A stretch of DNA of 64,000 nucleotides from Candidatus Micrarchaeota archaeon. GTDB lineage: Archaea; Micrarchaeota; Micrarchaeia; Norongarragalinales; Norongarragalinaceae. The stretch covers positions 1,428 through 65,427 of the forward strand of contig JACRGH010000044.1 in NCBI GenBank assembly GCA_016212375.1, given 5' to 3'. The notes beneath the pieces are model-generated. The model was given only the letters and a program-made list of their open reading frames with translations. It had not been told where the DNA came from and did not search any database. The translations under genes and the position numbers were made by a program. This document shows positions 4,808 through 27,402 of this stretch, piece after piece; the first letter of the stretch is position 1; every line of letters starts with the position of its first letter.

Positions 4808-4828
4808 ACTACACACATACCCACACCG

Positions 4829-7256: not shown

Positions 7257-7410
7257 GCATTTGAAAGCAGGATATAACCCATATCCAACGAAGTTGGAAA
7301 GCTTAAAAACGTCGCGTTTCGTAATGCCTGCGGCCCGTTTGGGAGCCTATCCGTCAAGTGATTGGCAAAGTTAAATCTTGAATCCAAAAACCATGTTTGG
7401 GGGAGTTTAC

Positions 7411-7911: not shown

Positions 7912-7985
7912 TTTAACCCGGGAGTGGGCCGCGCACCCCCCCATCTCCCGAAACCTTTTTCTTCAACCGTTCCATTGACATCACT

Positions 7986-9110: not shown

Positions 9111-9221
9111 GAAAAGCCGCACCGCAAAACCGTGTAAAAAAAGACGCGTAAAAACGGATTCAAACCCGGGTCGGCCCAAATGTTCCAAACGGTTTAAAAC
9201 GCACGTAACGTTGTTGCTCTG

Positions 9222-9995
9222 ATGCGAGCCCGAAAAACAGTTGCCAGGACAAGCCACACCACAAAGGTCGGCAGTTTCCGCGGTCCACGTGATTCTTTTC
9301 GCGCCCAAATCGCATTGTGGATGATGACCAAATTTGCGATGGTCTTTTTCATCATCTTACTTGCCGGCATCATGATCAGTTTTTCCGACACGCAAAAAAC
9401 CGCCATCTGCCGCACGCAGGCGCAATCCATGGCCAACAACATCGCCTCGACGTTGAGCAACGTCATCAATTCCCCGGTGGAGGACGAACGCAAGGTCGTT
9501 TCCTTCGTGTCCTCGCTTTCGGTGGGCAAAAGCCAGCTGGAACGATACACCATCAACGTCACTAATATCCCGGCGCAGAACGACCCGAAAACCGGATCAT
9601 TGGTGGTGCACGTATTGTCCGGCATGGGGTGCGAAGGATACGCCCGCGCGTCTTATGACAAGACCATGACCATCATGGACCCGACAACGTTAAGTTCACG
9701 TTGGAATGCGGGTTTGAGCCTGGAAATGAGGCCATCGGACATCCAGAAACGGGATTACTACCTCATTATTGCCAAATGCAAACCAAAACAGGCCGGTTTT
9801 TCCAGCTATTTGTACTTGCGCCAATGCAACGGCGTGTTGGGGACGGAATTGAATCCGGAAACGTCATGTCCGCCTTATTTGGAAAGCGCGGAACCGGACA
9901 TGACCAAACGGTTGGTCGCAAATCCGCTGCTTCGATGCTGCGGATGGGAAGCAGTTGAAAACGGAGGAACACCCCAATGCCCGGCCCCCATCTGA
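9222..9995 (+). CDS. Pre-pilin-like protein (...FRA|QIALWMMTKFAMVFFIILLAGIMI)
   Basis: Class III-like N-terminus; part of the pilin gene array. Confidence 0.5.
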   Translation: MRARKTVARTSHTTKVGSFRGPRDSFRAQIALWMMTKFAMVFFIILLAGIMISFSDTQKTAICRTQAQSMANNIASTLSNVINSPVEDERKVVSFVSSLSVGKSQLERYTINVTNIPAQNDPKTGSLVVHVLSGMGCEGYARASYDKTMTIMDPTTLSSRWNAGLSLEMRPSDIQKRDYYLIIAKCKPKQAGFSSYLYLRQCNGVLGTELNPETSCPPYLESAEPDMTKRLVANPLLRCCGWEAVENGGTPQCPAPI

Positions 9996-10591
9996 ACACT
10001 AAACACCGCTCAAGGGGTTTCGTTGGCCCTTTGGGCGATGATTTACCCAGCATTTTCCCCATCGTTGCCGCCGTGGTATTGTTCATCGGCACATTGGCGT
10101 ATGCCAACGGCTTGGTCGAGGGCAAGAACCGCTTGCTTGAAACGCGCCAAGCCGCATTGGCGCTGTCCTACCTTGCGACGGAAACGGGCCTCATCAACAA
10201 TCGCACCGATTTTGAGCAAAACACCTGCAAAGACCATCTGATGAAATATGCGCTGTCCAACCGCATCCAATTTGCCGTGACCGTGAAGCGGTATTGCCAG
10301 AGCATCCAATTTTATTATCCACAAGCCAACCCGTCTCCTGAATACTTGAAAAAAAACCCGTCATACATTCAAAAAAACGATTTGGAAACGCAGGGCCAGA
10401 CGTGGGCGTATTGCACCAACAAGGTGGACATCAACGGAAATTCCCCGGCGGACGGGCTTTTGGGCGTGCCAGAAGATGCCGTCGTCTTCACGTACCCGGT
10501 AGCCGTGCCATGTCCATTGCCAAACCAGCCGCCGACCAACGGATTGGGCCTTATCAACGTGATTGCATGGAAGGAACGCGGAAAAATATGA
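9977..10591 (+). CDS. Pre-pilin-like protein (...SRG|FVGPLGDDLPSIFPIVAAVVLFIGTLAYA)
   Basis: Class III-like N-terminus; its stop overlaps the next ORF as ATGA. Confidence 0.5.
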   Translation: MPGPHLNTKHRSRGFVGPLGDDLPSIFPIVAAVVLFIGTLAYANGLVEGKNRLLETRQAALALSYLATETGLINNRTDFEQNTCKDHLMKYALSNRIQFAVTVKRYCQSIQFYYPQANPSPEYLKKNPSYIQKNDLETQGQTWAYCTNKVDINGNSPADGLLGVPEDAVVFTYPVAVPCPLPNQPPTNGLGLINVIAWKERGKI

Positions 10592-10682
10592 TTCACACAC
10601 GCGGAGTGCCGCATGACCGAGCCTTGGCATTGGAACGGGGTCGGACCAAGGAAAATGCCAGCGCCAACTCAAATGACATCCT

Positions 10683-10760
10683 CCCCGGGCTAAAGCCCGG
10701 GGTATCCCCGCAGGGGCAAGTTAAACAGCATTTGGGACATATTGCCGGCCTAAAGGCCGG
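10683..10760 (+). repeat. Two tandem ~45-bp units, each with a perfect GC-rich palindrome (CCCCGGGC-TAAA-GCCCGGGG and CCGGCC-TAAA-GGCCGG)
   Basis: Read directly from the sequence. They lie just upstream of the signal-peptide coding region of the sixth pilin. Confidence 0.8.
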
Positions 10761-10833
10761 GGTATGGCCCAAAGCGGAAGTCAAACAAAGACAAAAACTG
10801 AAAAACAAGCACCAATCGGCCGAACCCCAACCC

Positions 10834-11637
10834 GTGATTGGCAAACGGGGCCAGGCGGCCATTTTCGACGGCATCACCTTGTTGTTGCTGGCATCGATTT
10901 CGTCAGCGTTGATTTTCAGCTTTGTCAGCGGCTATGGGGTGCAACAGGACCGGGTGTTGCGTTCCGCCTACATCCTCAACTACATGCAAAGCGTGGTCAA
11001 GGCATCCTACTACGTCGACGCATCCACCTTGAGCAAGGTGGACAACCGGGAATACGGGCTCGACAGCCGCGGAATACCACGGGTAAACCAGTTGGAAATC
11101 TACCAGGACCTCAAGGACGACTGCCAAAAACTCAGCAAATACAGCGGAAGCTTTTCCGTCTCGGAATTGCTCAAGCGGGATTTGGCGGAAAAAAAACCTT
11201 TATTGGACGACAAGTTCGACGGCACCAACGCGCTGGGCATCACGGCGTACAAATGCGCCATCAAGGAACTGATGAAGCCGTTTTGGTACTCGGGTTTTTA
11301 CTACGGGTTCGACGTGATTGATTCGGACCGCGCCGATGGCCAGACCGTGCAAGTATTGCCCAAGACAGAAGTCGTGAATTCCACCACGACGTACAGTAAC
11401 AACCGGCTGGTGACGGACTATCCGGATTTCCTCAAAGGCACGATTCCGGTCGGCCAAAACGGCATCTGCGCCAGTATCGCGCAGAACAAAGGACCGAACG
11501 GGCGGGAATTGAGCCCGGACGTGGTGACGGTGGACGTGCCGTTCAAGGTCGTCTACGTCGACTCGCTCGTGAGTCCACCGGTGCGCCAATTACGGAATTA
11601 CGCATTGGCGTTTTGCATCTGGCATCCGGCGCAGTAA
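10834..11637 (+). CDS. Pre-pilin-like protein. I favour the GTG start at 10834 (MIGKRG|QAAIFDGITLLLLASISSALIFSFV); the ATG at 10588 would give a 270-aa protein with an atypical 80-aa leader
   Basis: A canonical class III signal appears only if translation begins near 10834. The 10402-10587 part of the listed ORF overlaps the previous gene. Confidence 0.45.
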   Translation: MIGKRGQAAIFDGITLLLLASISSALIFSFVSGYGVQQDRVLRSAYILNYMQSVVKASYYVDASTLSKVDNREYGLDSRGIPRVNQLEIYQDLKDDCQKLSKYSGSFSVSELLKRDLAEKKPLLDDKFDGTNALGITAYKCAIKELMKPFWYSGFYYGFDVIDSDRADGQTVQVLPKTEVVNSTTTYSNNRLVTDYPDFLKGTIPVGQNGICASIAQNKGPNGRELSPDVVTVDVPFKVVYVDSLVSPPVRQLRNYALAFCIWHPAQ

Positions 11638-11779
11638 ACGGAAAGGCCCGGTTCCAGAAATAGAAATATGCAACGGAAACCACCAAGACAAACCGCAACT
11701 GAAGAAAAGACATAAAAAAAGTTTTCGTACCGTCGTTTTTTTCTTTTACACTGCTATCGCACTAACGATGAGCGCGGCA

Positions 11780-12943
11780 TCAGACCGGCGCCTGTTTTTT
11801 CTTCACCGGAATATCTTCCTGGCACTTCGGGCACGCGTAGGTAAACCCATCGGGACCGGGCGTGACTTTGGGCGAACAATTGGCGCACATGCCGGTGCCG
11901 CAGTACGGGCAAAATACGATGCGGGAGTTCTTTTGGTGGCACGTCGGGCAGATGGGCGGGATGGCAATCGGAACGGACGTGACTTCCTTGTCCAATTGGG
12001 CAAAGACGCTCTTGGGCGACGTAGTAGAGTATGCTTTGGAAGGGCTTTCGCCGAACAAATCGGCCATGCTGACCGAACCGGCCTTTGCCGGAACAACGTT
12101 TGCCGCAGGAATCGATTTGGATGCAGGTACCACGGATTTTGTTGGGTTTTCGTCTTTAAGCAAATCGGGCGTTTTTTGGCTCCTGGCTTCGTCTTTTTTC
12201 TTATTGGCATCGGCGGCGTCATGGAAAGACAGATAGACGTCATCCACGATTTGTTTTTCCTCGGATTCCTGCGGTTTTTGGCGCGATGCCAGGTACAACC
12301 GGCGGTGGCGGCCGGCATCCGGACTTGCCGACAAAGCAGCCGGATAATCCAGCTGCAAATCCGTCAGGATGGCTTCCACTTCCGTCTCCCGGGCCTGCTC
12401 CAGGACGCGTTTGGCCTCCTTTACGTTTTGCGTTACGGCCGGACCGGATACAAACGAGGGGTCTGCAGTGCCCGAATCGGAAGCGGAACTACCGATGGCA
12501 TCGGACAATATGCCTTTTTTACGCAAGGCATCCATTTTCGCGGCCATCTCGTTGTCTCCGGGCGGTTTTTGCTCCAGACTTTCCAATTCCTTTTGCAACA
12601 AGGCCAGGCGTTTGGTCGCCGGAACGGCCACTTCAGGTTTGTCGGATTTCCGCAAGCCGACGAACATGACGACGAACGACAAACCAGAGGCGGAAAGCCA
12701 AAAGGCGGGCCAATAGCCTTGGCCGCGAAATACGGCATCCAACCCGGTGGATACCACGTCGGCAAGGATTGCCAAAACCGCGACAAAGGCACCCAAGAGG
12801 ACGGATGCGCCCAATTTTTCCTCCTGGCTGAAAGTGCGGACGTCCGGATAGGTGTAGCGGACGGCAAGATATCCAGGCGTTATGGAACCTAGGATGATGA
12901 ACAGATAATAGGCCAATGCGGCGACGATGTCCAATTCAGCCAT
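11780..12943 (-). CDS. Membrane protein with three N-terminal transmembrane helices, a coiled-coil or disordered middle, and a C-terminal double zinc ribbon (CPTC...CPYC...CANC...CPKC)
   Basis: Hydrophobic N-terminus and a four-CxxC C-terminus; sits at the end of the pilus locus. Confidence 0.5.
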   Translation of the reverse strand: MAELDIVAALAYYLFIILGSITPGYLAVRYTYPDVRTFSQEEKLGASVLLGAFVAVLAILADVVSTGLDAVFRGQGYWPAFWLSASGLSFVVMFVGLRKSDKPEVAVPATKRLALLQKELESLEQKPPGDNEMAAKMDALRKKGILSDAIGSSASDSGTADPSFVSGPAVTQNVKEAKRVLEQARETEVEAILTDLQLDYPAALSASPDAGRHRRLYLASRQKPQESEEKQIVDDVYLSFHDAADANKKKDEARSQKTPDLLKDENPTKSVVPASKSIPAANVVPAKAGSVSMADLFGESPSKAYSTTSPKSVFAQLDKEVTSVPIAIPPICPTCHQKNSRIVFCPYCGTGMCANCSPKVTPGPDGFTYACPKCQEDIPVKKKQAPV

Positions 12944-13166
12944 AGGATAGGTTTAACGGAGACGCCATTAAAAAAGCCGGGTGCTTTAGGTTAACAACAT
13001 TAAAAATGAAAACCGCAGGGCCATCCGGATCCCACGGAAAGACCCTAAAAAAAGAACAAAACCGAAAAAGAGCAAGAAAGAAAAAAAATCAACTGAAAAA
13101 AAGCATCAAAAAGAAAACACAAAAAAACAACAAAAAAGGAAAACGTACGACGGTCGGACACCAATC

Positions 13167-13430
13167 ATGCCCCTTGAAACGTTATTGCAGGATTTATGGC
13201 CCTTGGCGCTTTTGTCCGCCATGATGGGCATCGCAATCTTTCCATTGGCCCTATTTTGCTCATTTTTGTATTCATACTTGAAAACGCGGTTCGAACAGGT
13301 GCCAAAACCGGTGTTGTTTTTCGCCGTCACCTTGCTCGGCACGTTCCTCGCCGTTTTGGTAATTTATTTGTATTTGGACCTGACGTTTGCAGACATCGTG
13401 CAAAACCTGCCGGACAACCCGGCGGCATAA
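13167..13430 (+). CDS. Small hypothetical membrane protein
   Basis: Two predicted transmembrane helices; no homolog recognised. Confidence 0.3.
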   Translation: MPLETLLQDLWPLALLSAMMGIAIFPLALFCSFLYSYLKTRFEQVPKPVLFFAVTLLGTFLAVLVIYLYLDLTFADIVQNLPDNPAA

Positions 13431-13662
13431 AGGCGCCGCCCATAATCCATAGGAAAAAGCTGGAAAATCCAGTGAAACGTTCCGGTCACCATAGCGCATC
13501 CCAAAAAAAACGTAGGGCTAAGCTGGAAAAAAAGACCATCCGGCCATAAAAATTCGCCCCTTTTCGAACCTGGTTTTTGGTCGTTTTTCGTTCCGTGCAA
13601 ATGTACAACTCCAACCCGGCCCAAGAAAGCGTATTAAATGGGCGCGCCGTGAGTATTGGCAT

Positions 13663-16600
13663 ATGCGCCGCACGCGTTTTTCCCTCTTCATTTTGATGAT
13701 GCTGGTTTTGGAAATGACCGCACCCATCGTGTGGGCCGACAGCTTCCAAAGCCGGACACAAAGCGCCATTTACTTCGCCGGAACTCCACCCGCAAGCGGT
13801 GCACCTTCCGGCAGTTCAACCTCCGGAACAACCACCACCACTGGAGGCACGGCAGGTACTGGCGCTGGAACTCCCGGCACGCCTGCAACCGGCAGCGGAA
13901 CAGGCCCCGCCGCAAGCACCCCTCCATCCGGAGCGCCGTCCACTGCCGCGTCACCCGGCACTACCACGACCGGCGGCGTTACGCCACCCGTTCCCACAAC
14001 ACGCCCGGCGTCGGCATCCAGCGGACCTGCATGCCAAATCCACTCCATGAGCGATAGCGAGCGTAACCAGTTGCACCAATTCCTGTTTTCATCGAACGGC
14101 GCATTCCGCGGGGATTCGTTCAATGATTTGTCCGATTTGGATGCCCTGGTGCAAGCGGGGGAAAAGCCGACGGACCCGTTCAGCAAGGAGCGCAAAAAAC
14201 AGGACGCGCAGACTCCGGACCCCAATGCCACCGTTGACGTGATGTCCATCGCGGGATTGGCGGGAATGGATAAAATCGGCAAGGATGAAATCGCCAAGAA
14301 ATTCGGCGTGTGGGATAGCAAGACCAACTCCATCAAGAGCAACACGAATATCCCGATTGCCGATGCCAAGAAAATCCTCGCGCAACAACCGGCCGACTCG
14401 CCGTACCAGGAAGCGTTCAGGCAAATCCAGGAGTACATCAACGGCCAGGTCAACAGCAAGGAAAAGGCCGCGGCGGAAAAAGAACAGACCAAGGAATTGG
14501 CGCCGTACGAGCGGTACAAAGTCATCATGCCCGGCTCTGGCAAGGAAGTCAGCTTGGCGGAGGTCTTTCGCGCGCAAAAAATCGACCCGGAAAGCTGTTT
14601 GCTCAAGGATGCGCACATCAACGGCCGCGTCGGGTATATCGCGATTCTGGACACCGACATCACATACGGCACCAAGAACTCGCCCCTTTTGCAAGGCAAC
14701 CAAGTCTCACCGGCCACGGGCAAACCCAATGCCGAACTGACTTCCGTGCGCGGCGGGGAAACCATCAACCAGCACGTCTACGGCCAAAGCGTGGTGGGGT
14801 ACCTGAACCTCAACGGCGGAGGCAATCTGATCGTTCCGGAATTCTACCGCGACTGGATTGTCTTCACCACGGCCTACACCAAAGCCGACTTTTATTTTTC
14901 CATGATCACCTCGATCGCCGCATTTGGCGCCATCAAGGATCTTGAAGCGGTCAAGGATATCAAGCAAAAACAGTTGCAAAACCTCAAGACGCGCGAGCCC
15001 AATCCCCTGCTTGCCGCCCAGATACGGGAACAAACCACCGGCGTGGTCCAAAAGGACGCGGCAGGACGGTATCTTCTGAAAGAAGGCGGCATACAAGTGC
15101 CCGGCGGACAGGCCGCGAGCGTGGAAATCGACAGCGCCACGAACACGCTTAAGTATTACAACACGGCCGGCGCGCACATTGCACCGGCGGACGTAGCCGC
15201 GGTTCCAGACATCGATACGGCGCTAAAAAAACAGCCGGACTTGAGTTTCCGGACAAAAGGCGGGCTTGAAAACGACATCAAGGACGCTGAATTCAACATC
15301 GACTCGCTCCGAAAAGTCAAAGGTACCCTCGAAGGACGCGTCATAACCAGTTTCATGCTCGCGGGCGGCTGGCTGGGCCCTGCCCGCATGGCGTTCAGCT
15401 TGAACAACGGTATCTTATTCCAGGCCCGAAGCCAGGCCGACGACAAATTCCTACGTTTATTGGCCAACAAGGAAGTGCTCAGCGATTTCAAGAAGGCGTC
15501 CAGTTTCTTGGCCATCGGAAAAATCGAGGAAACGGTCGCCAAATACGCCGGATTGGGCCAGACGCCTCAAAAAGCATTTTTCGCCAAGAATTTGTTGTTC
15601 CTCAATTACCCCGAATCGCAAAAGACGCCCAACTACGAATCCAGCACGGTCCTGCGAAGCGAGGACGATGGCACCATCGGCATCAACACCCGTTGGCGGG
15701 GCGGGGCGTACACGCTGAACTACGAGGATATGCGGGCGTTTGCCGACAAACAAGGACCCGAGTCGTTCACGTCATTGGCCATGGTGTCCAACAACATCCT
15801 GGCCGAACCGGCGCTGGAGGATAAGAACCTCAAATCGCTTACCGCGTTTTTCTCCGTCGCCGTCCCGTTCATTGTTACGCGGAAAATATTCCAACTGCAG
15901 GAACGCACCCTGGGCGCCGGCATCTTCCTGACTACATTGGAGTATCTGGACATCAATGAAAACTATGCCAAAGACGTCCAGTGCAACATCGATGAGTACA
16001 ATGATTTGAAAACCGCTTATCGGCAAGCATTCACCGCCAGCGCAGCGACCACAATCCTGCTTTTGTCCCGCTCATTCCTCACCCCGTTCCGCAAATTCCT
16101 TCAAACCACGGATTTTGGAAAATCCCTCGGTGCCGGCATATTGAATGTCTTGGACTACACCAACCCCGGGGATGCCTGGCGCGTGCACGTCGGGAACCGC
16201 GGCATCACCTACACCTCCAATTGCAAGGACCAGATGCAGACCATCCTGTCCTGGCAAAGCATCCCGGAACGCGTGAGCACGACGTCCAATGCCTTGGCGG
16301 ACAAGTTGCCGGCGGTCAACGACCAGTTGTCCAAAATCGGGCTGTCCAAAGTATTGGGCGCCAACGCGGAGGCGGCGCAGACCGAAGCCAAAATCAAGAA
16401 CCTAAAGGACGTGTTGAACCTGCGCGCCGTGACGCAGAACCAAGGCGGATTCGTGCGCACGCCCGAACTGCTTTACCTGCACATCGACCAATCCACATCC
16501 ATGACCAAAGGAGCGCTGTATGATTTGGTCAACAACGCATGCGGATTGCAGGACCGCATCCAAAGCAAGGACGGCCGCAGTTTGTCGTTCGGCGAAGGGT

Positions 16601-17883
16601 TGGAGGCCAACAACGCCGACGGCTCAAAGGCGCTTTCCTTCAAATCCGCCATCTGGAAATTGCGCGCATTGGCCAACAACAAAGTACAGGCGTTGGGCCG
16701 CATCATCATCCCAAACACCATCATCCAGAGCAACTTGATGGGCGGGACGGATGCGTTTGTGGAAATCGCAAGCACGGGTCAAAGCACGCTGGTCAACCCG
16801 CCCTGCGACCTGACGTCGGCCATCCGACAGCTGACCGGACGGGACATCGGGACCGACTTGACGCAGGCCATCGGCAAGGTCCGCACCGTCGAGACGTCGG
16901 AAGGGCAAGCCGGATTGCTGGATGGGCAGATTGATTACGTCGGGCGCAACGGCGTCGGCGCGTCGGTGCCAACTCCGGAAGACTTGCGAAAATCCATTAT
17001 TTCCGGCGGCCGCATCAGCGTGCGCAACAACGGACAGGCCGTCCTTTATGGCGCCACGGGAAACAGCCAACAGCCCATCGGTACCCTCAAGAGCATCATC
17101 GGTGACAGCGGGGCATTGCATTATGACCAACCCACAGGGCAAATCAGCCTCATCATCTACTCGATTTTTGAAACGTCCAACCAGAACATCCAGAATTACA
17201 ACCTGGACACGCGGGGTTCGGGGGCGCAAATCCAGGTGCAAGCCAAGCGTGGTTTTGAGGACTCGGCCAACAAATTGAACGCCGGATTGGACAAGATTGC
17301 CGGAAAGGACGGCATCACGTCGTTTGAGACCAAGGACCACATCTACTACATCACCCCGGATGGAAAGCTCAGGGTCATCGACAAGAACACGGGCAAAGCC
17401 ACGGATTACAACATCACCGGACCGATTACAAAAGACGGCAACGGCAACTTGGTCATTCCCACGGACAAGGGCGACTTCAAACTGAATTTGACCAACGAAA
17501 ACGGACAGCCGACGCTCAACGCGGAAGGGCCGGACGGCCTAAAGGAAGTGCTTGCCTTGTTGGCAGCGCGCGGCGAAAACGGCATCATGACGTTCAATCC
17601 CTCCACCGGCGCCATCAACGTGTACAACGGCCAGGACGTGCCACTTAACCCGGCGTTTGCGCAGAACGGCATCGGCTTTTCCGGCAACAAGGACGGCACC
17701 ACGTCCGGCGTCCCCGCGGATAGCCCCTTTTTCGCACCCTCGTCGAGCAGTTCGACGACCACGGATTCGGCACCGCCTAAGCTGTTCCTCCCGTCGTGGC
17801 CGGAAGAGTTGCCTTGGGCGGCACTGTTTGCGGGATTGATTTTGTTCGGAGTCGTGGCGATACGGTACCGGAAAGTCGGATAA
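13663..17883 (+). CDS. Giant secreted cell-surface protein (1406 aa). It has a signal peptide, a Thr/Gly/Pro-rich stalk and a C-terminal transmembrane anchor with a basic tail that resembles a PGF-CTERM/archaeosortase sorting signal
   Basis: N-terminal MRRTRFSLFILMMLVLEMTAPIVWA; a TTTTGGTAGTGAGTPGTPATGSG linker; C-terminal SSSSSTTTDSAPPKLFLPSWPEELPWAALFAGLILFGVVAIRYRKVG. Confidence 0.65.
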   Translation: MRRTRFSLFILMMLVLEMTAPIVWADSFQSRTQSAIYFAGTPPASGAPSGSSTSGTTTTTGGTAGTGAGTPGTPATGSGTGPAASTPPSGAPSTAASPGTTTTGGVTPPVPTTRPASASSGPACQIHSMSDSERNQLHQFLFSSNGAFRGDSFNDLSDLDALVQAGEKPTDPFSKERKKQDAQTPDPNATVDVMSIAGLAGMDKIGKDEIAKKFGVWDSKTNSIKSNTNIPIADAKKILAQQPADSPYQEAFRQIQEYINGQVNSKEKAAAEKEQTKELAPYERYKVIMPGSGKEVSLAEVFRAQKIDPESCLLKDAHINGRVGYIAILDTDITYGTKNSPLLQGNQVSPATGKPNAELTSVRGGETINQHVYGQSVVGYLNLNGGGNLIVPEFYRDWIVFTTAYTKADFYFSMITSIAAFGAIKDLEAVKDIKQKQLQNLKTREPNPLLAAQIREQTTGVVQKDAAGRYLLKEGGIQVPGGQAASVEIDSATNTLKYYNTAGAHIAPADVAAVPDIDTALKKQPDLSFRTKGGLENDIKDAEFNIDSLRKVKGTLEGRVITSFMLAGGWLGPARMAFSLNNGILFQARSQADDKFLRLLANKEVLSDFKKASSFLAIGKIEETVAKYAGLGQTPQKAFFAKNLLFLNYPESQKTPNYESSTVLRSEDDGTIGINTRWRGGAYTLNYEDMRAFADKQGPESFTSLAMVSNNILAEPALEDKNLKSLTAFFSVAVPFIVTRKIFQLQERTLGAGIFLTTLEYLDINENYAKDVQCNIDEYNDLKTAYRQAFTASAATTILLLSRSFLTPFRKFLQTTDFGKSLGAGILNVLDYTNPGDAWRVHVGNRGITYTSNCKDQMQTILSWQSIPERVSTTSNALADKLPAVNDQLSKIGLSKVLGANAEAAQTEAKIKNLKDVLNLRAVTQNQGGFVRTPELLYLHIDQSTSMTKGALYDLVNNACGLQDRIQSKDGRSLSFGEGLEANNADGSKALSFKSAIWKLRALANNKVQALGRIIIPNTIIQSNLMGGTDAFVEIASTGQSTLVNPPCDLTSAIRQLTGRDIGTDLTQAIGKVRTVETSEGQAGLLDGQIDYVGRNGVGASVPTPEDLRKSIISGGRISVRNNGQAVLYGATGNSQQPIGTLKSIIGDSGALHYDQPTGQISLIIYSIFETSNQNIQNYNLDTRGSGAQIQVQAKRGFEDSANKLNAGLDKIAGKDGITSFETKDHIYYITPDGKLRVIDKNTGKATDYNITGPITKDGNGNLVIPTDKGDFKLNLTNENGQPTLNAEGPDGLKEVLALLAARGENGIMTFNPSTGAINVYNGQDVPLNPAFAQNGIGFSGNKDGTTSGVPADSPFFAPSSSSSTTTDSAPPKLFLPSWPEELPWAALFAGLILFGVVAIRYRKVG

Positions 17884-18474: not shown

Positions 18475-18635
18475 CCCCGAACCCCCCGAGTCTTGTTTTG
18501 CGAATCAAAATGGAGGAGGGGGGATTCGAACCCGCCGCGGGACCACAGGGGGAGCACCCCCTATAGTCCTACGTTACCCCGAACCCCCCGAGTCTTGTTT
18601 TGCGAATCAAAATGGAGGAGGGGGGATTCGAACCC
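18475..18635 (-). repeat. Two direct copies of a 59-bp tRNA-like unit (18475-18533 and 18577-18635). Each is a T-arm plus acceptor 3' strand plus a conserved trailer
   Basis: On the minus strand each copy reads GGGTTCGAATCCCCCCTCCTCCA-TTTTGATTCGCAAAACAAGACTCGGGGGGTTCGGGG. Only copy 2 has a perfectly paired T-stem (GGGGG/CCCCC). Confidence 0.6.
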
Positions 18636-18800
18636 CCGAAGGCGCTAGGCCACAGGATGGCTTACCCAAATCTGATTCGCGCACAAAAATAATTTTCTTT
18701 CTTTTGGCCGACCAGATTTTCTTTCTTTTCGGGAAAAGAAAGAAAAAATGGGCCTTAAGTCCTGCCCTTTTGGCCAGACTCAGGACACTCCTCCGCACAG
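18612..18800 (-). ncRNA. Candidate atypical tRNA-like gene. A 5' acceptor strand GGAGGAG at about 18790 would match the 3' acceptor CTCCTCC-A at about 18612, with roughly 115 nt between them. Possibly a tRNA with very large or non-canonical introns, or a split or decayed tRNA
   Basis: The acceptor strands are complementary and the T-arm is archaeal-type, but I could not fold a canonical D-arm or anticodon arm by hand. Confidence 0.25.
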
Positions 18801-20922: not shown

Positions 20923-22095
20923 ATGATGCATGCCATGGTTTACCGGAAAACACCACGAAAACAGCACGGGTTGCTCACCGCCGTCGCAAACAACGACGTG
21001 GACGCATTGTTGGAATTAAAGGAAAAAGGCAAGCCGATAAACAATGCAACATTGGGACACGCATTACGGATAGCATCGGAAGTCGGAAGCCTAGAATTAA
21101 TACCATTAATTTTCAGCGACATCAAAAAATTAAAAGCGGCAACAAAAACAACGGATGAACAAGGAAAAACAGCACTCCACATCGCTTCGGAAAAAGGACA
21201 TGAAAATTTCGCCGATTTTTTGATTGAAGCCGGGGCCAACGTCAATGTTGCGGACAAGCTAGGACATACGCCACTGCATGCCGCGGCCAAAGAAGGACGA
21301 GCAAACATCATCCGGCTACTCCTCCGGCATAAAGCCGACCCCGAACAAGTTGACGAAAAAGGGGAAACGCCGCTCTACCATGCGGTCGTCTATAACCGAA
21401 TCAATGCAGTCCATGCGTTAGGCGAAAAATCAGACGTCAACCGGCATTTCGAACACCAAACCAACCCATTCGGCCCGGTCAGGGACAAATATGATTTGAA
21501 AATACTCGAAAATCTCGGTTTTCCAAAATTGGAGCAAAGCGAACAGGGAAACACGTTGCTGCATGTCGCCACACTCCGTGGAGATTCGGAAATGGCAACG
21601 GCGCTCATGCACCATGGGGCAGACCCGACCGAGCGCAACGGATACGGGGTGACTCCGATCCATTTGGCGGCCTACCGGGGCGATTTTTCTACGCTAAAAC
21701 AACTCGTGGGAAAAAGTACAAACCGCATCAAAATTAAAGACAACGCAGGCTTCACCCCGCTGCATTATGCGGCAAAAGCGAGATTGGATGATGCGAACGA
21801 ACACACCGAATTGATGGATTGGCTGATTAGCCAGGGGGCGAACGTTTCCGCCGAAAGCCACAAAAAAATTACACCGCTTCACTTGGCAGCAGACCGATAC
21901 GATGCGGAAAAAGCCATGGGATTACTCTTGGAAAAAGGCGCAAGAATCGATGCCCAAGACCACGAAGGCAATACCCCGCTTCATTATGCCGCACAAGGTA
22001 GGAGGAAAAATTTTGACTACTTGGTTTCAAGAGGCGCCGGTACAACAATACGGAATCAAAAGGGGCATCTACCGGCATACGACCGAATGGTTTAA
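20923..22095 (+). CDS. Ankyrin-repeat protein with about nine repeats
   Basis: Repeated G-TPLH-AA...G......LL..GA..N motifs. Confidence 0.8.
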   Translation: MMHAMVYRKTPRKQHGLLTAVANNDVDALLELKEKGKPINNATLGHALRIASEVGSLELIPLIFSDIKKLKAATKTTDEQGKTALHIASEKGHENFADFLIEAGANVNVADKLGHTPLHAAAKEGRANIIRLLLRHKADPEQVDEKGETPLYHAVVYNRINAVHALGEKSDVNRHFEHQTNPFGPVRDKYDLKILENLGFPKLEQSEQGNTLLHVATLRGDSEMATALMHHGADPTERNGYGVTPIHLAAYRGDFSTLKQLVGKSTNRIKIKDNAGFTPLHYAAKARLDDANEHTELMDWLISQGANVSAESHKKITPLHLAADRYDAEKAMGLLLEKGARIDAQDHEGNTPLHYAAQGRRKNFDYLVSRGAGTTIRNQKGHLPAYDRMV

Positions 22096-22177: not shown

Positions 22178-22212
22178 AACTTGTTAATTCTTTTTTGCTT
22201 CCTTTTTGTTTG

Positions 22213-22346
22213 TTTTCTTTTCGGCAGGCCGCATTTCCCGGGCAAACGCATCTGCGTTTGCTGGGCCCCGCAAAGCCGAATGCTTTGCGCGGGTCTTTTC
22301 AAAAAAGAAAAGGCGACCGTGTCTGTACCGCTGAGCTACCGAGGCG
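22213..22346 (-). repeat. Promoter-proximal module upstream of tRNA-Thr(CGU), plus a 21-nt duplicate of the tRNA 5' end (22326-22346)
   Basis: In RNA sense: GCCTCGGTAGCTCAGCGGTA | CAGACACGGTCGCC | half hairpin CTTTTC-AAAAAA-GAAAAG | 63-bp nested palindromic insert | ATGCGGCCTGCCGAAAAGAAAAC | ~45 nt | tRNA. Confidence 0.7.
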
Positions 22347-22417: not shown

Positions 22418-23224
22418 ATGGCGGTTACTTACGCAACCGGCGGCAAACATACTGAGCCAACGGGTGCACAAAAAGGCGCAATTGCGAACTTTGTTAATGG
22501 AACAATGCGTTCTAAAACGTTTTCTTTGAAGCCGAAATCGCGGTTGGGTAAAGCTTTAGATATCCGCCAAACCACCATTGCGATTATGTTCGACCCCCAC
22601 ATCTGGAAAAAGCTCCGCCGCGGGCCCCAAGTCATCCTGCTAAAGGATGCGGCCATGATTTCTGCATTGACAGGCCTCCAAAGCGGTGACCGCGTCATCG
22701 ACTGCGGCGCGGGCTCCGGGTTTTTGTCCTGCTATTTGGGCTCCATCGTCGCGCCGGCAGGCAAAGTCTACGCGTACGAAAAGCGCGAAGAATTCCAACA
22801 ATTGTCCGCCAAGAACGTGGAAAAGGCCCGCTTGTCGGACGTGGTGGACGTCAAACTCAAAGACAACGTCCTAGAGAGCGGTTTTGAAGAAAAAGACGTC
22901 GACTTGGTCACCTTGGACATGGGCGATTCGCACCTGGCATTACCACATGCGTTTGCCGCGCTGAAAGGCGGCGGGTTTTGCGTCGGCTACCTCCCGCATG
23001 CCGAACAGGTGCAGACCTTTGTGAAAGCGGCATTGGTAGCCGGGTTTGAGCAGGGCGAAACCATCGAGGTCATCGTGCGGCCCATGTTGGTAAGGGAGAG
23101 GGGCTTCCGTCCCGAGAACTCGGGGTTGTTGCACACGGCATACTTGACGTTTCTCCGAAAGCCGCGCTCCGGCCCACACACGCCGAAGCAACCGCACGTC
23201 CAAGACGCGACGAAAACCACTTAA
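22418..23224 (+). CDS. trmI: tRNA (m1A) methyltransferase TrmI/Gcd14 family. The start codon is uncertain; internal Mets are at residues 30, 47 and 70
   Basis: DCGAGSGFLS SAM motif, VYAYEKREEF, and a C-terminal TrmI-type domain. Confidence 0.6.
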   Translation: MAVTYATGGKHTEPTGAQKGAIANFVNGTMRSKTFSLKPKSRLGKALDIRQTTIAIMFDPHIWKKLRRGPQVILLKDAAMISALTGLQSGDRVIDCGAGSGFLSCYLGSIVAPAGKVYAYEKREEFQQLSAKNVEKARLSDVVDVKLKDNVLESGFEEKDVDLVTLDMGDSHLALPHAFAALKGGGFCVGYLPHAEQVQTFVKAALVAGFEQGETIEVIVRPMLVRERGFRPENSGLLHTAYLTFLRKPRSGPHTPKQPHVQDATKTT

Positions 23225-23247: not shown

Positions 23248-24366
23248 ATGGAAAAAAGCGCTACCGGCGGACTCAGTTTACTCCTAGTGTCGGTGTTTCT
23301 TTTTTCGGCGTCACTCCAGGCCGCAACGTCCGCGTCCAACGCCATCCCATCCTGCCCCAATAACCAAGTGTGCATGTTTTACGGCGCGTCTTTGGAAAAA
23401 AACACACCCGGACCTTCCGGCACCGGGTTTTCCACCTCGAAATTCGTCTGCCCGGTCAATATCCCCATCACCGGCACGTTCGGCGCCCCATATACCAACG
23501 CCAATGGAGAAACCCGCAGACGGCCCGGAATCGAAATGCGGGTGCCGGAAAACACGGACGTTAAATCTCCGGCAGCGGGAAAAGTGCTGGAGACCGGTTT
23601 TGAACAAACCGGTGCCGGACATTTCATCCTCATCCGCCACGCGACAAATCCCAACGTGGAGAGCAAAATCGGTTACCTGCAAGGACCGTCCACCAAACGG
23701 GGGGGAGAATCGGTCAAAGCGGGCGAAACAATAGGCAAATCCGGAAAAAGCGGTGCCGCGCTATGGCCCTCAGTTTATTTCGAACTGACACGCGCCACCA
23801 TTCCACAAATCGAGGTAGAAGACATCTGTAAATCCACCCCCGTCGTGTCAAGTTCGACCGTTGCTCCGGTAAAGGCGACGGTTGCAGGCCGAGTGGACTG
23901 TACGCAATTTTCGAACAATCCGGTGCCGGAGTCCTGGAGCGTCGTGCCGGGCGGCCGCTTCGGCAGCCAACGGGCGTACCCGGGCGGACACAGCGGATTC
24001 GATTACGGGGGATTCAACTGCGGGCAACCCGTCAAAGCGGTTTGGGCAGGCCAAGTGCGATACTACCGGAACACCGCTGCAGGCTACGGCAACGAAGTTT
24101 CCATCAAAACCGCGTGCACCGACGGGACTGAAAAAATTGTGACGTACGACCACCTCCAGGGGTTCAACGCGGCCGTATTGGACAAAGGTGCAGTACAAGC
24201 CGGAGACGTCATCGCCTACCTTGGAAATACCGGAGGCAACTATGAATGCCACTTGCACGTCAACGTCTTTGCATCGCCATTTCGAATCCAAAACGGATTG
24301 GATGCCGGCAACGTCATGAATCCAGAAGGACTGGTCAGGGGCGGCTTGCAGGGCCATTTGGCATAA
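23248..24366 (+). CDS. Secreted protein with a degenerate LytM-like domain and a C-terminal catalytic M23 peptidase domain
   Basis: Signal peptide; HSGFDYG (HxxxD) and CHLHVNV (HxH) zinc motifs in the C-terminal half; Cys pairs; paralog of 24463-25563. Confidence 0.7.
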   Translation: MEKSATGGLSLLLVSVFLFSASLQAATSASNAIPSCPNNQVCMFYGASLEKNTPGPSGTGFSTSKFVCPVNIPITGTFGAPYTNANGETRRRPGIEMRVPENTDVKSPAAGKVLETGFEQTGAGHFILIRHATNPNVESKIGYLQGPSTKRGGESVKAGETIGKSGKSGAALWPSVYFELTRATIPQIEVEDICKSTPVVSSSTVAPVKATVAGRVDCTQFSNNPVPESWSVVPGGRFGSQRAYPGGHSGFDYGGFNCGQPVKAVWAGQVRYYRNTAAGYGNEVSIKTACTDGTEKIVTYDHLQGFNAAVLDKGAVQAGDVIAYLGNTGGNYECHLHVNVFASPFRIQNGLDAGNVMNPEGLVRGGLQGHLA

Positions 24367-24462
24367 ACATACACATTCCACCATCACGAAATCCACCGCA
24401 TGCAGTTCAATAAAGATGCCGGAAACTGAACGGTTTTAAGTCCGGCTTGCATCGATTGATTC

Positions 24463-25563
24463 ATGCACGCGCGATGGACCGGAGCCATTTTTTTCCTAGG
24501 CTTGCTATTTATTGCGACATCCGTACAGGCCGCAACCATGCCAACGTGTCCGGCCAACCAGGTCTGCTTCTTTTACGGTGCCAGTTTGGAAAAAACGGCA
24601 AGCCAAAAATCGTTTTCGACCACCGGATTTTCCTGCCCGGTGGCGGCGGCCATAACCGTTCCGTTCAGCCACGCACGAAACGCCAATGGCAAAATCCGGG
24701 CCCATTTGGGCATCGGCTTGGACACACCCGTAGGCACGGCCGTGAAAGCGGCGGCGAACGGGAAAGTCATACAGACTCCGACCGATTATTCGGATTTAGG
24801 CACCGTCATCATTCTGCGCCATTCGGATAATCCCAAAGTGGAAACCCAATACGGCCACCTGCAAAAAGCCAATGTTAGACCCGGCGACACCGTCAAAAAA
24901 GGCGACATCATCGGATTATCAGGCCAAAGCGGACAGGGCACAGACAGGCCGATGCTGTATTTTGAACTGGACCGCGACGGCAATCCCAGCTCGGAAGTGC
25001 AGGACATCTGCAAGAACGCCTATGTGGCGCCGGCTCCGATAAGCAAACCCGGTCAAACCCCAAAACCGGCTATTCCAAATTCAGGCAATAGCGTGGTGGG
25101 CGGTCCATCGCTCGGAACCACTCAAATTCTGAGCATCCTAAAAGCGGTACGCTCGCCAGCGGCCGATGCGGACACGGCAACGTGTTTCTATGAAAAAAGC
25201 CAGCAGTACAACATCGATGTCGCGTATATGCTCGCGTTTTTTGGGCAAGAATCCACATGGGGAACAGCATCCGGCTACGCCAGCACGCATACCGTTGGTA
25301 ACATCGTCAAAAACGCACCGGGAAGCTACTTATGCGATCAGGCATCCAATGGCCGGTTTTGTTCCTACAGCAGTTGGTGCCGGGGTGCAGAGCATTGGTA
25401 TTACTACATCAAAAATTCGCCACTTTATCTGCCCCAGGGTAAAACGACACCGGAACAAATCATCCCGATTTACGCGCCCGCCAGTGAAAATAACGTGGGA
25501 TCGTACGTCGCATTCGTCAACCGGTGCGTAACCAATTGGAGAGCGGGTTCTTCGATCTGTTGA
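24463..25563 (+). CDS. Secreted protein with an N-terminal LytM/M23-like domain and a C-terminal glucosaminidase-like domain
   Basis: Signal peptide; the N-terminal module shared with 23248 (CP.NQVC.FYGASLEK...F.CPV); C-terminal AFFGQESTWGTASGYASTHTVGNIVKN resembles the N-acetylglucosaminidase family. Confidence 0.55.
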   Translation: MHARWTGAIFFLGLLFIATSVQAATMPTCPANQVCFFYGASLEKTASQKSFSTTGFSCPVAAAITVPFSHARNANGKIRAHLGIGLDTPVGTAVKAAANGKVIQTPTDYSDLGTVIILRHSDNPKVETQYGHLQKANVRPGDTVKKGDIIGLSGQSGQGTDRPMLYFELDRDGNPSSEVQDICKNAYVAPAPISKPGQTPKPAIPNSGNSVVGGPSLGTTQILSILKAVRSPAADADTATCFYEKSQQYNIDVAYMLAFFGQESTWGTASGYASTHTVGNIVKNAPGSYLCDQASNGRFCSYSSWCRGAEHWYYYIKNSPLYLPQGKTTPEQIIPIYAPASENNVGSYVAFVNRCVTNWRAGSSIC

Positions 25564-25585
25564 GAAAAAAATTGAAAGACAGAAT

Positions 25586-25921
25586 TTACCCGTTGCTAGG
25601 ATGCTCGTCGGAGTACAACCACGCGCCGATCAGGACACGGCCGATTCGGCCCATCTGCCATAAAACGGCGTCGTCCGGGGAGACGATGGTCGAACCAATC
25701 GCTTCCAACGCCAGGTAAAGGCCGATCCATTTGGCGTAGCTTTTTGGCAGTTTTCCGACCACCAAAAGCAAGCCCACAGTCAGCCGCACGATGCGGCCCA
25801 CGGCGAACAGCAAAATCAAGTCCGTGGAATAGACCAAACTGATGAGGGCATCCACGATGAGAAAAACGCCGGCCAAAAGGTGGACGCGGCGGTCGTTGAA
25901 GTCAAGGCCGAAACGTTTCAC
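25586..25921 (-). CDS. Hypothetical membrane protein (three transmembrane helices)
   Basis: Hydrophobic segments only. Confidence 0.35.
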   Translation of the reverse strand: MKRFGLDFNDRRVHLLAGVFLIVDALISLVYSTDLILLFAVGRIVRLTVGLLLVVGKLPKSYAKWIGLYLALEAIGSTIVSPDDAVLWQMGRIGRVLIGAWLYSDEHPSNG

Positions 25922-26013
25922 GGACGATTAAGGATGAAGCCGGTTAAAAAAAGCGGTTGAAAATGCGCCTGGAAAAAAGTATAGAAAAACGACGACAGAT
26001 GCTAATTGGAAAA

Positions 26014-26040
26014 AAAGAAGCCCCCGACGCGAAGTGCAAC
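26014..26040 (-). repeat. Degenerate duplicate of the 3' end of tRNA-Thr(GGU) (TTCGCGTCGGGGGCT), with a conserved leader
   Basis: Minus-strand GGACTAAGGGGCGCTTCCCGTGGTCC...TTCGCGTCGGGGGCTTC. The leader resembles the GGACTATAGGGGGTGCTCCCCCTGTGGTCC found beside the 18475 repeat. Confidence 0.5.
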
Positions 26041-26127
26041 CCGGACCACGGGAAGCGCCCCTTAGTCCCAGGTTCCCCCGAACCCCCAACGAATGCTCGC
26101 GAATCACAAAATGAAAGAAAAAGAAAG

Positions 26128-26239
26128 AGCCCCCGACGCGAATTGAACGCGCGACCTCGTCCTTTTCGGAAAAGCCAATGGCAAAGTGCCGTTTGCTTTC
26201 TTACCATGGACGCGCTCTACCAGGCTGAGCTACAGGGGC
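26128..26239 (-). tRNA. tRNA-Thr (anticodon GGU) with a ~39-nt intron at or near the canonical 37/38 position
   Basis: GCCCCTG-TA-GCTC-AGCCTGGTA-GAGC-G-CGTCC-AUGGUAA-[intron GAAAGCAAACGGCACUUUGCCAUUGGCUUUUCCGAAAAG]-GGACG-AGGTC-GCGCG-TTCAATT-CGCGT-CGGGGGC-T. Confidence 0.75.
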
Positions 26240-26273
26240 AACTCGGTTACTCTTGATTTTTTCCTTTTTCTTC

Positions 26274-26355
26274 GTTTTCTTTTTCGGCAGGCCGCATTTT
26301 TCTTTTCGCAAAAGAAAAAGGCGACCGCGCCTGTACCAGGCTGAGCTACAGGGGC
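26274..26355 (-). repeat. Promoter-proximal module upstream of tRNA-Thr(GGU), plus a 22-nt duplicate of the tRNA 5' end (26334-26355)
   Basis: In RNA sense: GCCCCTGTAGCTCAGCCTGGTA | CAGGCGCGGTCGCC | hairpin TTTTTCTTTT-GCG-AAAAGAAAAA | TGCGGCCTGCCGAAAAAGAAAAC | ~35 nt | tRNA. Confidence 0.7.
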
Positions 26356-26625
26356 AATGGGCAAAGTCGATCGGACTGCCGCCAACATCGACAAGCTTCG
26401 ATACTAGTTCGTCGTGTTTTTCGGCATTGAAGCAAAGACGTTTGCAACCGCCGGTGACGCGACAAAAAAGGAAAACAAACTGGGGAGTTGGGGGTAAAAA
26501 AACCCTCCTACGGCCCGAAACGGGATGCTAAAAACGGGATGTAAAGGAAAAGGGGAAAAAGAAAAGATTTTGCCGGAAAACCGGCGTCAAAAAGGAGTCA
26601 ATCGTTCTAACGGACGTCGTGCCGT

Positions 26626-27402
26626 TTAACCCAACTGGGCGTCCAGCGTCTGCTGGAACACCGAGTACGGCTGCGCGCCGACCAATTGCGTGGATTTACC
26701 GGATTTGTCCACGATGAAGAACGTGGGCGTGCCTTGGACGCCGTAGCTCAAACCCAGGTTCTGATCCGAGGTGACTTCGGCATCATACGGCTTCTTGGCA
26801 AAACAATCGGCGAATTTTGCCGCATCCACGCCCGCGCTCTTGGCATAGGTGGCGTAAATCGATTCGTTGACTAAAGTGCCCACGTTGATGACGTCGATGT
26901 TGTCGTAGACGGCATTGTGGAATTTCCAGAACGCCGCATTGCTACCCACGCGGAACGCGCACAATGCGGCATTGGCGGCCGGGCGGGCGTTGGGGTGGAT
27001 TTGGTCCAACGGGAAGTGCATATAGATGAACTTGATCTTACCGGTGTCGACGTAATTCTTGATGAGCTGACCTTCCGAATCCGAGTAGAACCGGGCGCAG
27101 AACGGACACTGCAAATCGGAAAACTCAACCACCGTCAGGGGGGCATCGGCCTTTCCGAGGAACGGCTTGTCAGCGGCGGCGGATAAGTCAAACTTGGTCG
27201 GAGCCGCGGCAGTGGGTGCCGGCGTGGGCTGCAATTGTTGGCCGCTTCCGGAACCGCTTCCACCGGATGGCGCAGCGGCGGTCAGCTGGATTTTGGATAA
27301 ACCGGTGCTGATGGTGGTGCCGGCGGACCAGACGGCAACGGATAACATGAGGGACGATATAACCACGGCAATGGCCAGGATCAGTATAGTTTTTTCAGTC
27401 AT
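26626..27402 (-). CDS. Membrane-anchored DsbA-like thiol:disulfide oxidoreductase (thioredoxin fold)
   Basis: N-terminal transmembrane helix, a Gly/Ser/Pro linker and a CPFC active site. Confidence 0.7.
   Translation of the reverse strand: MTEKTILILAIAVVISSLMLSVAVWSAGTTISTGLSKIQLTAAAPSGGSGSGSGQQLQPTPAPTAAAPTKFDLSAAADKPFLGKADAPLTVVEFSDLQCPFCARFYSDSEGQLIKNYVDTGKIKFIYMHFPLDQIHPNARPAANAALCAFRVGSNAAFWKFHNAVYDNIDVINVGTLVNESIYATYAKSAGVDAAKFADCFAKKPYDAEVTSDQNLGLSYGVQGTPTFFIVDKSGKSTQLVGAQPYSVFQQTLDAQLG

Follow-up and report, generated by a model that had tools for sequence, protein, structure and literature searches.

The stretch of DNA analysed here, referred to as the window, comprises 64,000 nucleotides of contig JACRGH010000044.1 from a Candidatus Micrarchaeota archaeon (NCBI assembly GCA_016212375.1; positions 1,428 to 65,427, forward strand). 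It carries two neighbouring genes, A and B, whose products are 100% identical to NCBI entries named 'M23 family metallopeptidase [Candidatus Micrarchaeota archaeon]'. Both proteins start with a signal peptide and a common four-cysteine module of 160 residues, which is a degenerate LytM domain (dLytM), and end in two different catalytic-type domains. The gene pair probably encodes two Sec-exported, disulfide-stabilised peptidoglycan hydrolases that share the dLytM module and act on the bacterial cell wall. The genes and domains concerned are the following.

23248 to 24366, plus strand: gene A, 372 amino acids; signal peptide, four-cysteine degenerate LytM module, linker and intact M23 endopeptidase domain (open reading frame, Pfam).
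23353 to 23829, plus strand: dLytM module of A, residues Cys36 to Cys194 (alignment with LytM, DipM and Pgp3 segments).
23980 to 24282, plus strand: intact M23 catalytic domain of A, approximately residues 245-345 (alignment of HSGFD, YDHL and CHLHV).
24463 to 25563, plus strand: gene B, 366 amino acids; signal peptide, four-cysteine degenerate LytM module, Pro-rich linker and GH73-like glucosaminidase domain (open reading frame, Pfam).
24547 to 25014, plus strand: dLytM module of B, residues Cys29 to Lys184 (alignment; Foldseek).
25075 to 25560, plus strand: GH73-like domain of B, residues 205-366, with six cysteines (Glu263 in AFFGQESTWG; YAPA in place of YATD).

A first-pass annotation of the window had described two adjacent signal-peptide genes with a common N-terminal module at these positions, and this was borne out by BLASTP (42% identity over 199 residues, E = 4e-42) and by the hydrophobicity of the N-termini. 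Beyond their first ~200 residues the two proteins are unrelated, and the paralogy that the annotation had assigned to the hydrolases as such is limited to the N-terminal module. The annotation had called this module Cys-containing, as its four invariant cysteines confirm; it is not an unknown module, however, but itself an M23 fold whose catalytic residues have been lost. Pfam Peptidase_M23 matches the module of B at 79.7 bits (residues 80-175), and its best stretch in the module of A covers residues 93-182. Catalytic positions were read from an alignment in which M23 domains from the window and from a related locus were set against the segments of LytM, DipM and Pgp3 from PDB alignments, with LytM His210, Asp214, His260, His291 and His293 as the five reference positions. 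The residues found at these positions, in this order, are:

A, N-terminal module: Arg, Glu, Tyr, Ser and Tyr.
B, N-terminal module: His, Gly, His, Met and Tyr.
A, C-terminal domain: His, Asp, His, His and His.

The module of B has thus lost the Asp ligand and both histidines of the HxH motif, and in the alignment neither N-terminal module contains the HxxxD and HxH motifs of an active M23 enzyme. Because the catalytic and zinc-binding residues are lost, the modules are classed as degenerate LytM domains and not as peptidases; lacking canonical zinc binding, they should be inactive as peptidases. The same features recur in related loci, which were found in NCBI assembly GCA_040960315.1 (L001), in JGI metagenomes (L005 and L006) and under an ENA-style ORMF accession (L007). 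Nine copies of the module were compared, two each from the window, L001, L006 and L007 and one from P0049, an orthologue of A. Four cysteines are invariant across the copies (in C-P-x(3-5)-V/G-C, F-x-C-P-V and I-C-K), Glu replaces the Asp ligand in eight of the nine, and Ser-x-Tyr replaces His-x-His in the same proportion. Identity is 49-70% between paralogous modules within one genome and 64-77% between orthologues. That the replacement residues are conserved suggests that dLytM has kept a function other than catalysis.

Structure prediction agrees with the retention of the M23 fold. In the AlphaFold models, the predicted local confidence (pLDDT) of the module is about 90, exceeding 90 over residues 60-190 of A, and Foldseek superposes the module on M23 structures, among them the inactive LytM domains of EnvC (4bh5 and 8c0j) and DipM (7qrl), with E values of about 1e-10 and target-normalised TM scores of 0.72-0.87 against EnvC and DipM. 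NCBIfam models of DipM, EnvC, ActS and NlpD match the module weakly (22-57 bits against cut-offs of 270-900), and no similarity to these LytM factors was found with NCBIfam at the equivalog level. Pfam detected no LysM, coiled-coil, SH3, PG_binding or SPOR domain in A or B.

The module could instead be a latency pro-domain, which would keep the catalytic domain blocked or silent while the protein is exported and be removed by cleavage at activation, as with the N-terminal regions of LytM and lysostaphin. Occluding N-terminal regions are common among M23 enzymes (PMC9662197), and PrgK, a component of the Enterococcus pCF10 type IV secretion system, has a metal-free LytM domain that down-regulates the SLT domain to which it is fused in cis (PMC11323569). 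The flexible linkers of A (residues 200-209 and 224-248) and B (residues 190-207), which have pLDDT values below 50 in the AlphaFold2 models, could serve as protease sites. The known pro-regions, however, are repeats or low-complexity segments and not second M23 folds (PMC9662197), whereas the present module is fully folded and highly conserved, with 53 invariant positions among five copies. The conservation of its replacement residues (R..E and S-x-Y) across paralogues and genomes moreover argues for a positive binding function, and we regard a pro-domain role as quite unlikely.

The catalytic M23 end that the annotation had ascribed to one of the genes stands without change. Protein A as a whole matches Pfam Peptidase_M23 (PF01551) in two stretches at 101.2 bits (cut-off 28.7), and HSGFD, YDHL and CHLHV of its C-terminal domain align with LytM His210, Asp214, His260, His291 and His293, so that all M23 motifs are kept. 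PDB sequence matches to NMB0315, LytU and lysostaphin extend over residues 242-352 and NCBIfam stretches over residues 244-340; the AlphaFold2 model of the whole protein has a pLDDT of 72.7. By alignment, the C-terminal domain of A has a complete M23 active site and is a predicted cross-link endopeptidase.

We treat the C-terminus of B as a GH73 domain that has diverged but keeps its key glutamate. Taken alone, B scores 18.5 bits against Pfam Glucosaminidase (PF01832) over residues 241-329 (E = 0.0034), which is under the cut-off of 30.2, and among the domains that the annotation had named at this locus M23 and DSBA pass their Pfam cut-offs and Glucosaminidase does not. The glucosaminidase-like end of B is nevertheless supported by the family and profile matches and by the conserved catalytic Glu of the QES motif. 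Close relatives of residues 205-366 are few, comprising P0002 from another Micrarchaeota metagenome-assembled genome (MAG) and P0004-P0007, of which P0005 and P0006 carry a precomputed PF01832 match. A profile of B-domain relatives retrieved 2204 cluster representatives among 1.84 billion at E ≤ 0.001; 34 of 43 sampled family members match PF01832 at E ≤ 0.001 (best E = 3.4e-14). Searched against the PDB, the B-domain profiles found solely GH73 structures at E < 1 (E = 0.003-0.5), namely Acp (5wqw), a phage cell-wall hydrolase (8yxk), pneumococcal LytB (7pj3/4q2w) and FlgJ (5dn5).

In alignment, the Glu-Ser of this family falls on ALESNWG of LytB and on HETGNG of Acp. Glu263 and Ser264 are at least 90% conserved over the 43 aligned members, and Glu263, which is invariant in the close-relative alignment, lies within a helix predicted by AlphaFold2 at residues 253-267; the GH73 proton donor, Glu585 in LytB, is located at the end of helix α-3 (PMC4633669). 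At the second GH73 motif, YATD, B reads IYAPASE: Tyr337, Ala338 and Pro339 show a conservation of 90% or more among family members, and Thr-Asp is replaced. The Asp of YATD is dispensable in some GH73 enzymes (PMC4633669). The model of B has a pLDDT of 77.7. With a complete M23 site in A and Glu263 kept in B, the catalytic residues are not absent from the two proteins.

Micrarchaeota copies of the GH73-like domain form a Cys-rich subgroup: they have six cysteines where the bacterial relatives have two. Of the named bacterial members of the family, that from Kouleothrix (Chloroflexota) is the nearest. In other Micrarchaeota proteins the same domain is joined to further catalytic domains, as in P0174, which combines it with an intact M23 domain and carries the NCBI name N-acetylmuramoyl-L-alanine amidase. 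Amidase_3 and M15 matches also occur among the sampled members, at the level of the family only. A bacterial-type, Kouleothrix-like subgroup of GH73-like relatives was seen on metagenome contigs (P0075, P0082, P0092, P0099, P0112, P0127, P0144 and P0152); these often have a C-terminal M23 domain with the last motif PHLDYQ (His-x-Asp, not His-x-His), in a domain order that is the reverse of that in B.

Both N-termini are signal-like, with a 15-residue Kyte-Doolittle maximum of 2.3-2.4 followed by small residues before an invariant Cys-Pro; the predicted cleavage site reads VQA|A in B and ASA| or VSA| in relatives. Anchoring as a lipoprotein through the first cysteine ([ILMAV]-P-x-C) is unlikely, because Pro at position -2 is atypical of a lipobox and this cysteine belongs to an invariant C-x5-7-C pair. 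Cysteines are even in number (eight in A, ten in B) and make up 2.2-2.7% of the residues, compared with 0-1.2% in cytoplasmic housekeeping proteins of the window. P0049 lacks the equivalents of Cys258 and Cys334 of A and keeps those of Cys218 and Cys290, and this joint loss suggests that Cys258-Cys334 and Cys218-Cys290 may form disulfide pairs in A. Within the dLytM module, the pairs are assumed to be Cys36-Cys42 and Cys68-Cys194.

The pair lies among the following neighbours.

22418 to 23224, plus strand: GCD14/Trm61-like tRNA methyltransferase gene, the conserved left border of the locus (Pfam GCD14, 2.7e-25).
25586 to 25921, minus strand: membrane protein of 111 amino acids without cysteine (open reading frame); its membership in the hydrolase system is uncertain.
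26127 to 26239, minus strand: tRNA-Phe(GAA) gene with a 38-nucleotide intron, between the hydrolase genes and the DsbA-like gene (ARAGORN with the intron option).
26626 to 27402, minus strand: gene of a DsbA-like thiol-disulfide oxidoreductase, 258 amino acids (Pfam, CPFC).

The GCD14 gene ends 23 nucleotides ahead of gene A, and an RpoP-like zinc ribbon followed by the archaeal L3-L4 ribosomal protein operon begins at position 28393. The pair lies between the GCD14 gene and the RpoP-L3-L4 operon region in the window and in L001, L005/L006 and L007, with orthologous proteins 50-63% identical. The shared order is GCD14, gene 1 (dLytM and active M23), gene 2 (dLytM and a glycan-cutting domain), a small membrane protein on the minus strand, the DsbA-like protein on the minus strand and L3; the contig of L005 ends after gene 2, L007 lacks an open reading frame for the small membrane protein, and a 135-residue open reading frame with RpoP between the DsbA-like and L3 genes is documented in L001 and L006 only. 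In L001, L005, L006 and L002, the last being another Micrarchaeota MAG, the GCD14 gene lies at most 23 nucleotides ahead of the hydrolase gene or overlaps it. Gene 2 in L001 (9131-10276), L006 (9033-10205) and L007 (1240-2406) has an SLT domain (LGQESGG...AAYNAGP) behind the same dLytM module and not a GH73 domain, the window being the sole case found of GH73 in this position. In L002 a GH73-like protein without dLytM comes after GCD14.

The dLytM module family is real but very rare. A metagenome scan for the module found four loci, a module profile searched against 5.8 billion proteins added one further member (P0212), all remaining matches being generic M23 proteins at 82 bits or less, and in species-representative genomes nothing was found apart from a spurious 21-residue match in a Verrucomicrobiae MAG. 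Mis-binned bacterial or chimeric DNA was ruled out as the source of the pair, which is flanked by archaeal genes in four independent assemblies. A phage origin was dropped as uninformative: the PHROG matches are to generic M23 endolysin and tape-measure families, and none was found for the adjacent small proteins.

The annotation had also placed a CPFC-containing, thioredoxin-fold DsbA-like protein about 1 kb downstream on the opposite strand, and such a gene is indeed present 1063 nucleotides past the end of B. Its product matches Pfam DSBA at 61.9 bits (cut-off 25.6; 9e-17) and Thioredoxin_4 at 107 bits (1.3e-30), has CPFC at residues 99-102 and cysteines at positions 99, 102, 148 and 200, and consists of an N-terminal transmembrane-like helix (hydrophobic maximum 3.0), a Gly/Ser/Pro linker and the thioredoxin fold, a layout that would make it membrane-anchored with an extracytoplasmic catalytic part. 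Its gene occupies a syntenic position in each of four loci (the window, L001, L006 and L007). Oxidative folding outside the cell, with this protein as the catalyst for A and B, is plausible; the link between the two is circumstantial, resting on proximity, on cysteine richness and patterns and on synteny among close relatives, and such synteny does not by itself imply functional coupling.

The gene of the 111-residue membrane protein is tail-to-tail with hydrolase gene 2 in the window, L001 and L006, with homologues of ~107-111 residues at 10302-10625 (minus strand) in L001 and within 10441-10944 (minus strand) in L006. It has no Pfam, NCBIfam or PHROG match over threshold, Pfam DUF4233 reaching merely E = 0.02. 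The tRNA-Phe(GAA) gene is outside the hydrolase system and divides transcription units. A TTTTAAG sequence ~25 nucleotides 5' of the ATG of gene B may be a TATA box.

On the left, the locus is preceded by an ankyrin-repeat protein of 390 residues (20923-22095, plus strand; Pfam Ank, 3.5e-54), which consists almost entirely of repeats, has no signal peptide and no cysteine and adjoins a tRNA-Thr gene. In symbionts, ankyrin proteins are frequently host-interaction factors. This tRNA-Thr and ankyrin gene occupy the position at which L001 instead has, upstream of GCD14 (1-7227), a serine resolvase and ~15 small minus-strand open reading frames without a Pfam match, a content suggesting that a mobile element is integrated there, at the locus's left border. 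A tRNA-Leu(TAA) gene with a 95-nucleotide intron was found at 18613-18794 (minus strand); like tRNA-Phe(GAA), it was detected solely by the intron option of ARAGORN and missed by default ARAGORN and by the Rfam gathering thresholds. Two elements on the minus strand, at ~22210-22345 and ~26270-26360, lie upstream of tRNA-Thr and tRNA-Phe, respectively, and each opens with a copy of the first ~20 nucleotides of its own tRNA. They have in common the motifs CGGTCGCCTTTT.CTTTT..GAAAAG and AATGCGGCCTGCCGAAAA, the second of which is exact at 22218 and 26281 (0.01 chance matches expected). Downstream, at ~26020-26050 (minus strand), the 3' end of tRNA-Phe recurs as a partial copy. This arrangement could represent remnants of att sites, or a tRNA leader or promoter element.

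Elsewhere in the window, the giant hydrolase that the annotation had noted at 47 kb was recovered in full.

47110 to 51492, plus strand: exported multi-domain murein hydrolase, 1460 amino acids (Pfam M23 in two stretches, Amidase_2 and SLT; signal peptide).

This protein has one intact M23 domain, a second in which HxH is lost (NELDIK), an Amidase_2 domain and a C-terminal SLT domain; it contains 31 cysteines and long stretches without a Pfam match, and its gene directly follows that of Cbf5/TruB. It represents a separate locus drawing on the same hydrolase toolkit and, judged by its domains, resembles the giant murein-degrading proteins of other DPANN archaea. Further to the left, several proteins without a Pfam match come after a T2SSE-type secretion or pilus ATPase (1856-4147), among them one of 823 residues, small Cys-rich proteins (8286-10591; 2-4% Cys) and a protein of 1406 residues whose N-terminus is signal-like (13663-17883); the region 1856-17883 may be a surface-structure or adhesion cluster. 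A protein of 431 residues (58271-59566, minus strand) has, in an archaeal genome, a C-terminal SpoIIE/PP2C-type phosphatase domain (3e-15).

The closest known counterparts of A and B are the archaeal hydrolases of Strock et al. (2025, PLoS Biol; PMC12352652). According to that study, ~5% of archaeal genomes, three Micrarchaeota genomes in its Table S2 among them, encode modular peptidoglycan hydrolases in which M23 and glucosaminidase types share binding domains and the catalytic domains are swapped, and two such archaeal hydrolases, one of each type, kill a bacterium experimentally. Woldo (M23) and Danwoldo (glucosaminidase) of Halogranum salarium are likewise archaeal signal-peptide proteins with bacterial-type M23 and PF01832 domains; there too, a peptidase and a glucosaminidase in one genome carry the same non-catalytic module, and domains were shuffled after acquisition from bacteria. 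The shared module in those systems, however, is a recognised wall-binding domain (PG_binding_1, LysM and others), C-terminal in Woldo, whereas here it is an N-terminal dLytM. Their examples are patchy and plasmid-enriched and the present locus is chromosomal and syntenic; the signal peptides are of the Tat type in Halogranum and Sec-like here, and A and B are known from sequence alone. The definition applied by Strock et al. calls for a minimum of one catalytic and one recognised cell-wall-binding domain, and in A and B Pfam gave M23 and a weak Glucosaminidase only. Because dLytM is not counted as a binding domain, the published screen would miss both proteins.

A regulatory or binding role for dLytM is drawn from two studied precedents, DipM and PrgK. 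Through its inactive LytM domain, DipM binds in trans to an SLT-type transglycosylase and an amidase and stimulates both (PMC10336132); these are the enzyme classes that are fused or co-encoded here. EnvC, NlpD, ActS and DipM all resemble the present module in being M23 folds with their catalytic residues lost, but they act in trans at the division site of the producer and carry coiled-coil or LysM targeting parts, whereas the present module is fused in cis, has a four-cysteine frame and belongs to an archaeal producer. In PrgK a dLytM domain is N-terminal to SLT; gene 2 of L001, L006 and L007 is built in the same way, and so is B, except that GH73 takes the position of SLT. PrgK differs in being membrane-anchored, in having CHAP as a third domain and in acting, as part of a conjugation machine, on the wall of its own producer; A and B have a cleavable-type signal peptide, no CHAP domain, no adjacent type IV secretion genes and an archaeal producer that is not known to make murein. 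The likeness to PrgK is one of architecture, and a close relationship in sequence was neither sought nor found. Csd1-Csd2 of Helicobacter pylori pairs an active with a degenerate M23 domain in a heterodimer in trans for control of the producer's cell shape; A has both kinds in one chain, a contact between which the model does not support.

Among DPANN archaea, the giant SLT proteins of Woesearchaeota and Pacearchaeota (up to 3000 residues) have been read as a means of attachment to bacteria or of attack on bacterial walls (PMC8204110; PMC9723730). They too carry exported murein-degrading domains and the 1460-residue protein of the window is of their type, while the A-B pair differs in its size of ~370 residues, its Micrarchaeota origin and its combination of M23 with GH73. 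The lifestyle of attacking bacterial cell walls that the first-pass annotation had proposed is a reasonable reading, and one already published for DPANN and other archaea (PMC12352652; PMC8204110; PMC9723730).

The substrate of A and B is most likely bacterial murein, since the co-occurring SLT, Amidase_2 and GH73 domains act on glycan containing N-acetylmuramic acid (MurNAc) and, to our knowledge, Micrarchaeota do not make murein. An archaeal envelope as the target, whether the wall of the dividing producer itself or the pseudomurein or S-layer of a host archaeon, would fit the fact that the known hosts of DPANN are archaea, and other peptide links might in principle also be open to M23 peptidases; the conserved, housekeeping-like position of the locus would suit such a role as well. 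Pseudomurein, however, lacks the MurNAc on which the SLT, Amidase_2, Amidase_3 and GH73 domains of this genome and its relatives act. Outside the archaea, the GH73-like domain has its closest relatives in bacteria, for instance in Kouleothrix, and in archaea that make pseudomurein Strock et al. saw hardly any such hydrolases (PMC12352652). We consider an archaeal target highly improbable.

A closer competitor concerns the purpose of murein cleavage and not its substrate. The same enzymes might digest peptidoglycan debris (necromass) for amino sugars and amino acids and not breach living bacteria. The core-chromosomal locus, which in four assemblies comes right after the gene of a housekeeping tRNA methyltransferase and is not on a plasmid or variable island like the weaponised hydrolases of Strock et al. 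(PMC12352652), would be in keeping with such nutritional scavenging, as would the DPANN 'shunt' proposed to recycle cell material (PMC9723730); in the open reading frames and Pfam matches, no pore-forming toxin or immunity gene was seen adjoining the pair. On the other hand, Pfam revealed no muropeptide transporter or catabolic gene in the window, and the 1460-residue, four-domain hydrolase of the same genome is typical of the contact-dependent wall-breaching proteins proposed in other DPANN (PMC8204110). Sequence does not distinguish debris from living walls; on balance, scavenging appears an unlikely purpose, if one to be taken seriously.

For the reading preferred here, that of two exported hydrolases acting on bacterial cell walls, we infer the following course, from export and disulfide formation through the role of dLytM to enzymatic activity and biological target. 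The pre-proteins of A and B would be exported by Sec and cut before the Cys-Pro motif, and their disulfides would then form, possibly with the help of the neighbouring DsbA-like protein. The non-cleaving dLytM module would bind peptidoglycan, a partner or the attached catalytic domain, tune activity and remain attached. The M23 domain of A would cut peptide cross-links and the GH73 domain of B the glycan strand between N-acetylglucosamine and MurNAc, so that A and B might jointly open the murein sacculus in both directions; the target would be living neighbours or hosts, or their remains.

Some points weigh against this reading. Cultured Micrarchaeota are partners of wall-less Thermoplasmatales and not of bacteria. 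The AlphaFold2 predicted template-modelling score is 0.46 for A and ranges over 0.46-0.51 for A and B, which renders the inter-domain geometry unreliable; with inter-domain confidence this low, a cis contact between dLytM and the catalytic domain cannot be claimed. Finally, the DsbA-like gene is on the other strand, and the genes of the membrane protein and the intron-containing tRNA-Phe lie between it and the hydrolase genes, so that co-regulation is not implied.

A bolder form of the same idea, which we put forward tentatively and as a doubtful proposition, is that the four-cysteine dLytM is a lineage-specific, interchangeable chassis. Its degenerate groove, with Arg/Glu for His/Asp and Ser-x-Tyr for His-x-His, would dock on and activate a fused M23, GH73 or SLT domain, or would pair both enzymes in a peptidase-glycosidase complex, to breach a bacterial host or prey. 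If this were true, an archaeon would have recruited LytM-factor activation in a cis or hetero-dimeric form, and some Micrarchaeota would associate with bacteria rather than with Thermoplasmatales.

Secreted peptidoglycan hydrolases of DPANN and other archaea directed against bacteria are already published and in part tested, and the gain from the present locus is incremental. What sets this locus apart are the dLytM domain as the non-catalytic module, the core-chromosomal syntenic position and the exchange of GH73 and SLT behind a constant module. This last feature provides a compact natural experiment on a dead LytM domain fused in cis to different hydrolases, and the small (~37 kDa), Cys-stabilised proteins are candidate antibacterial enzymes. 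Should A and B be active on murein, they would add a Micrarchaeota lineage to the archaea able to degrade bacterial walls.

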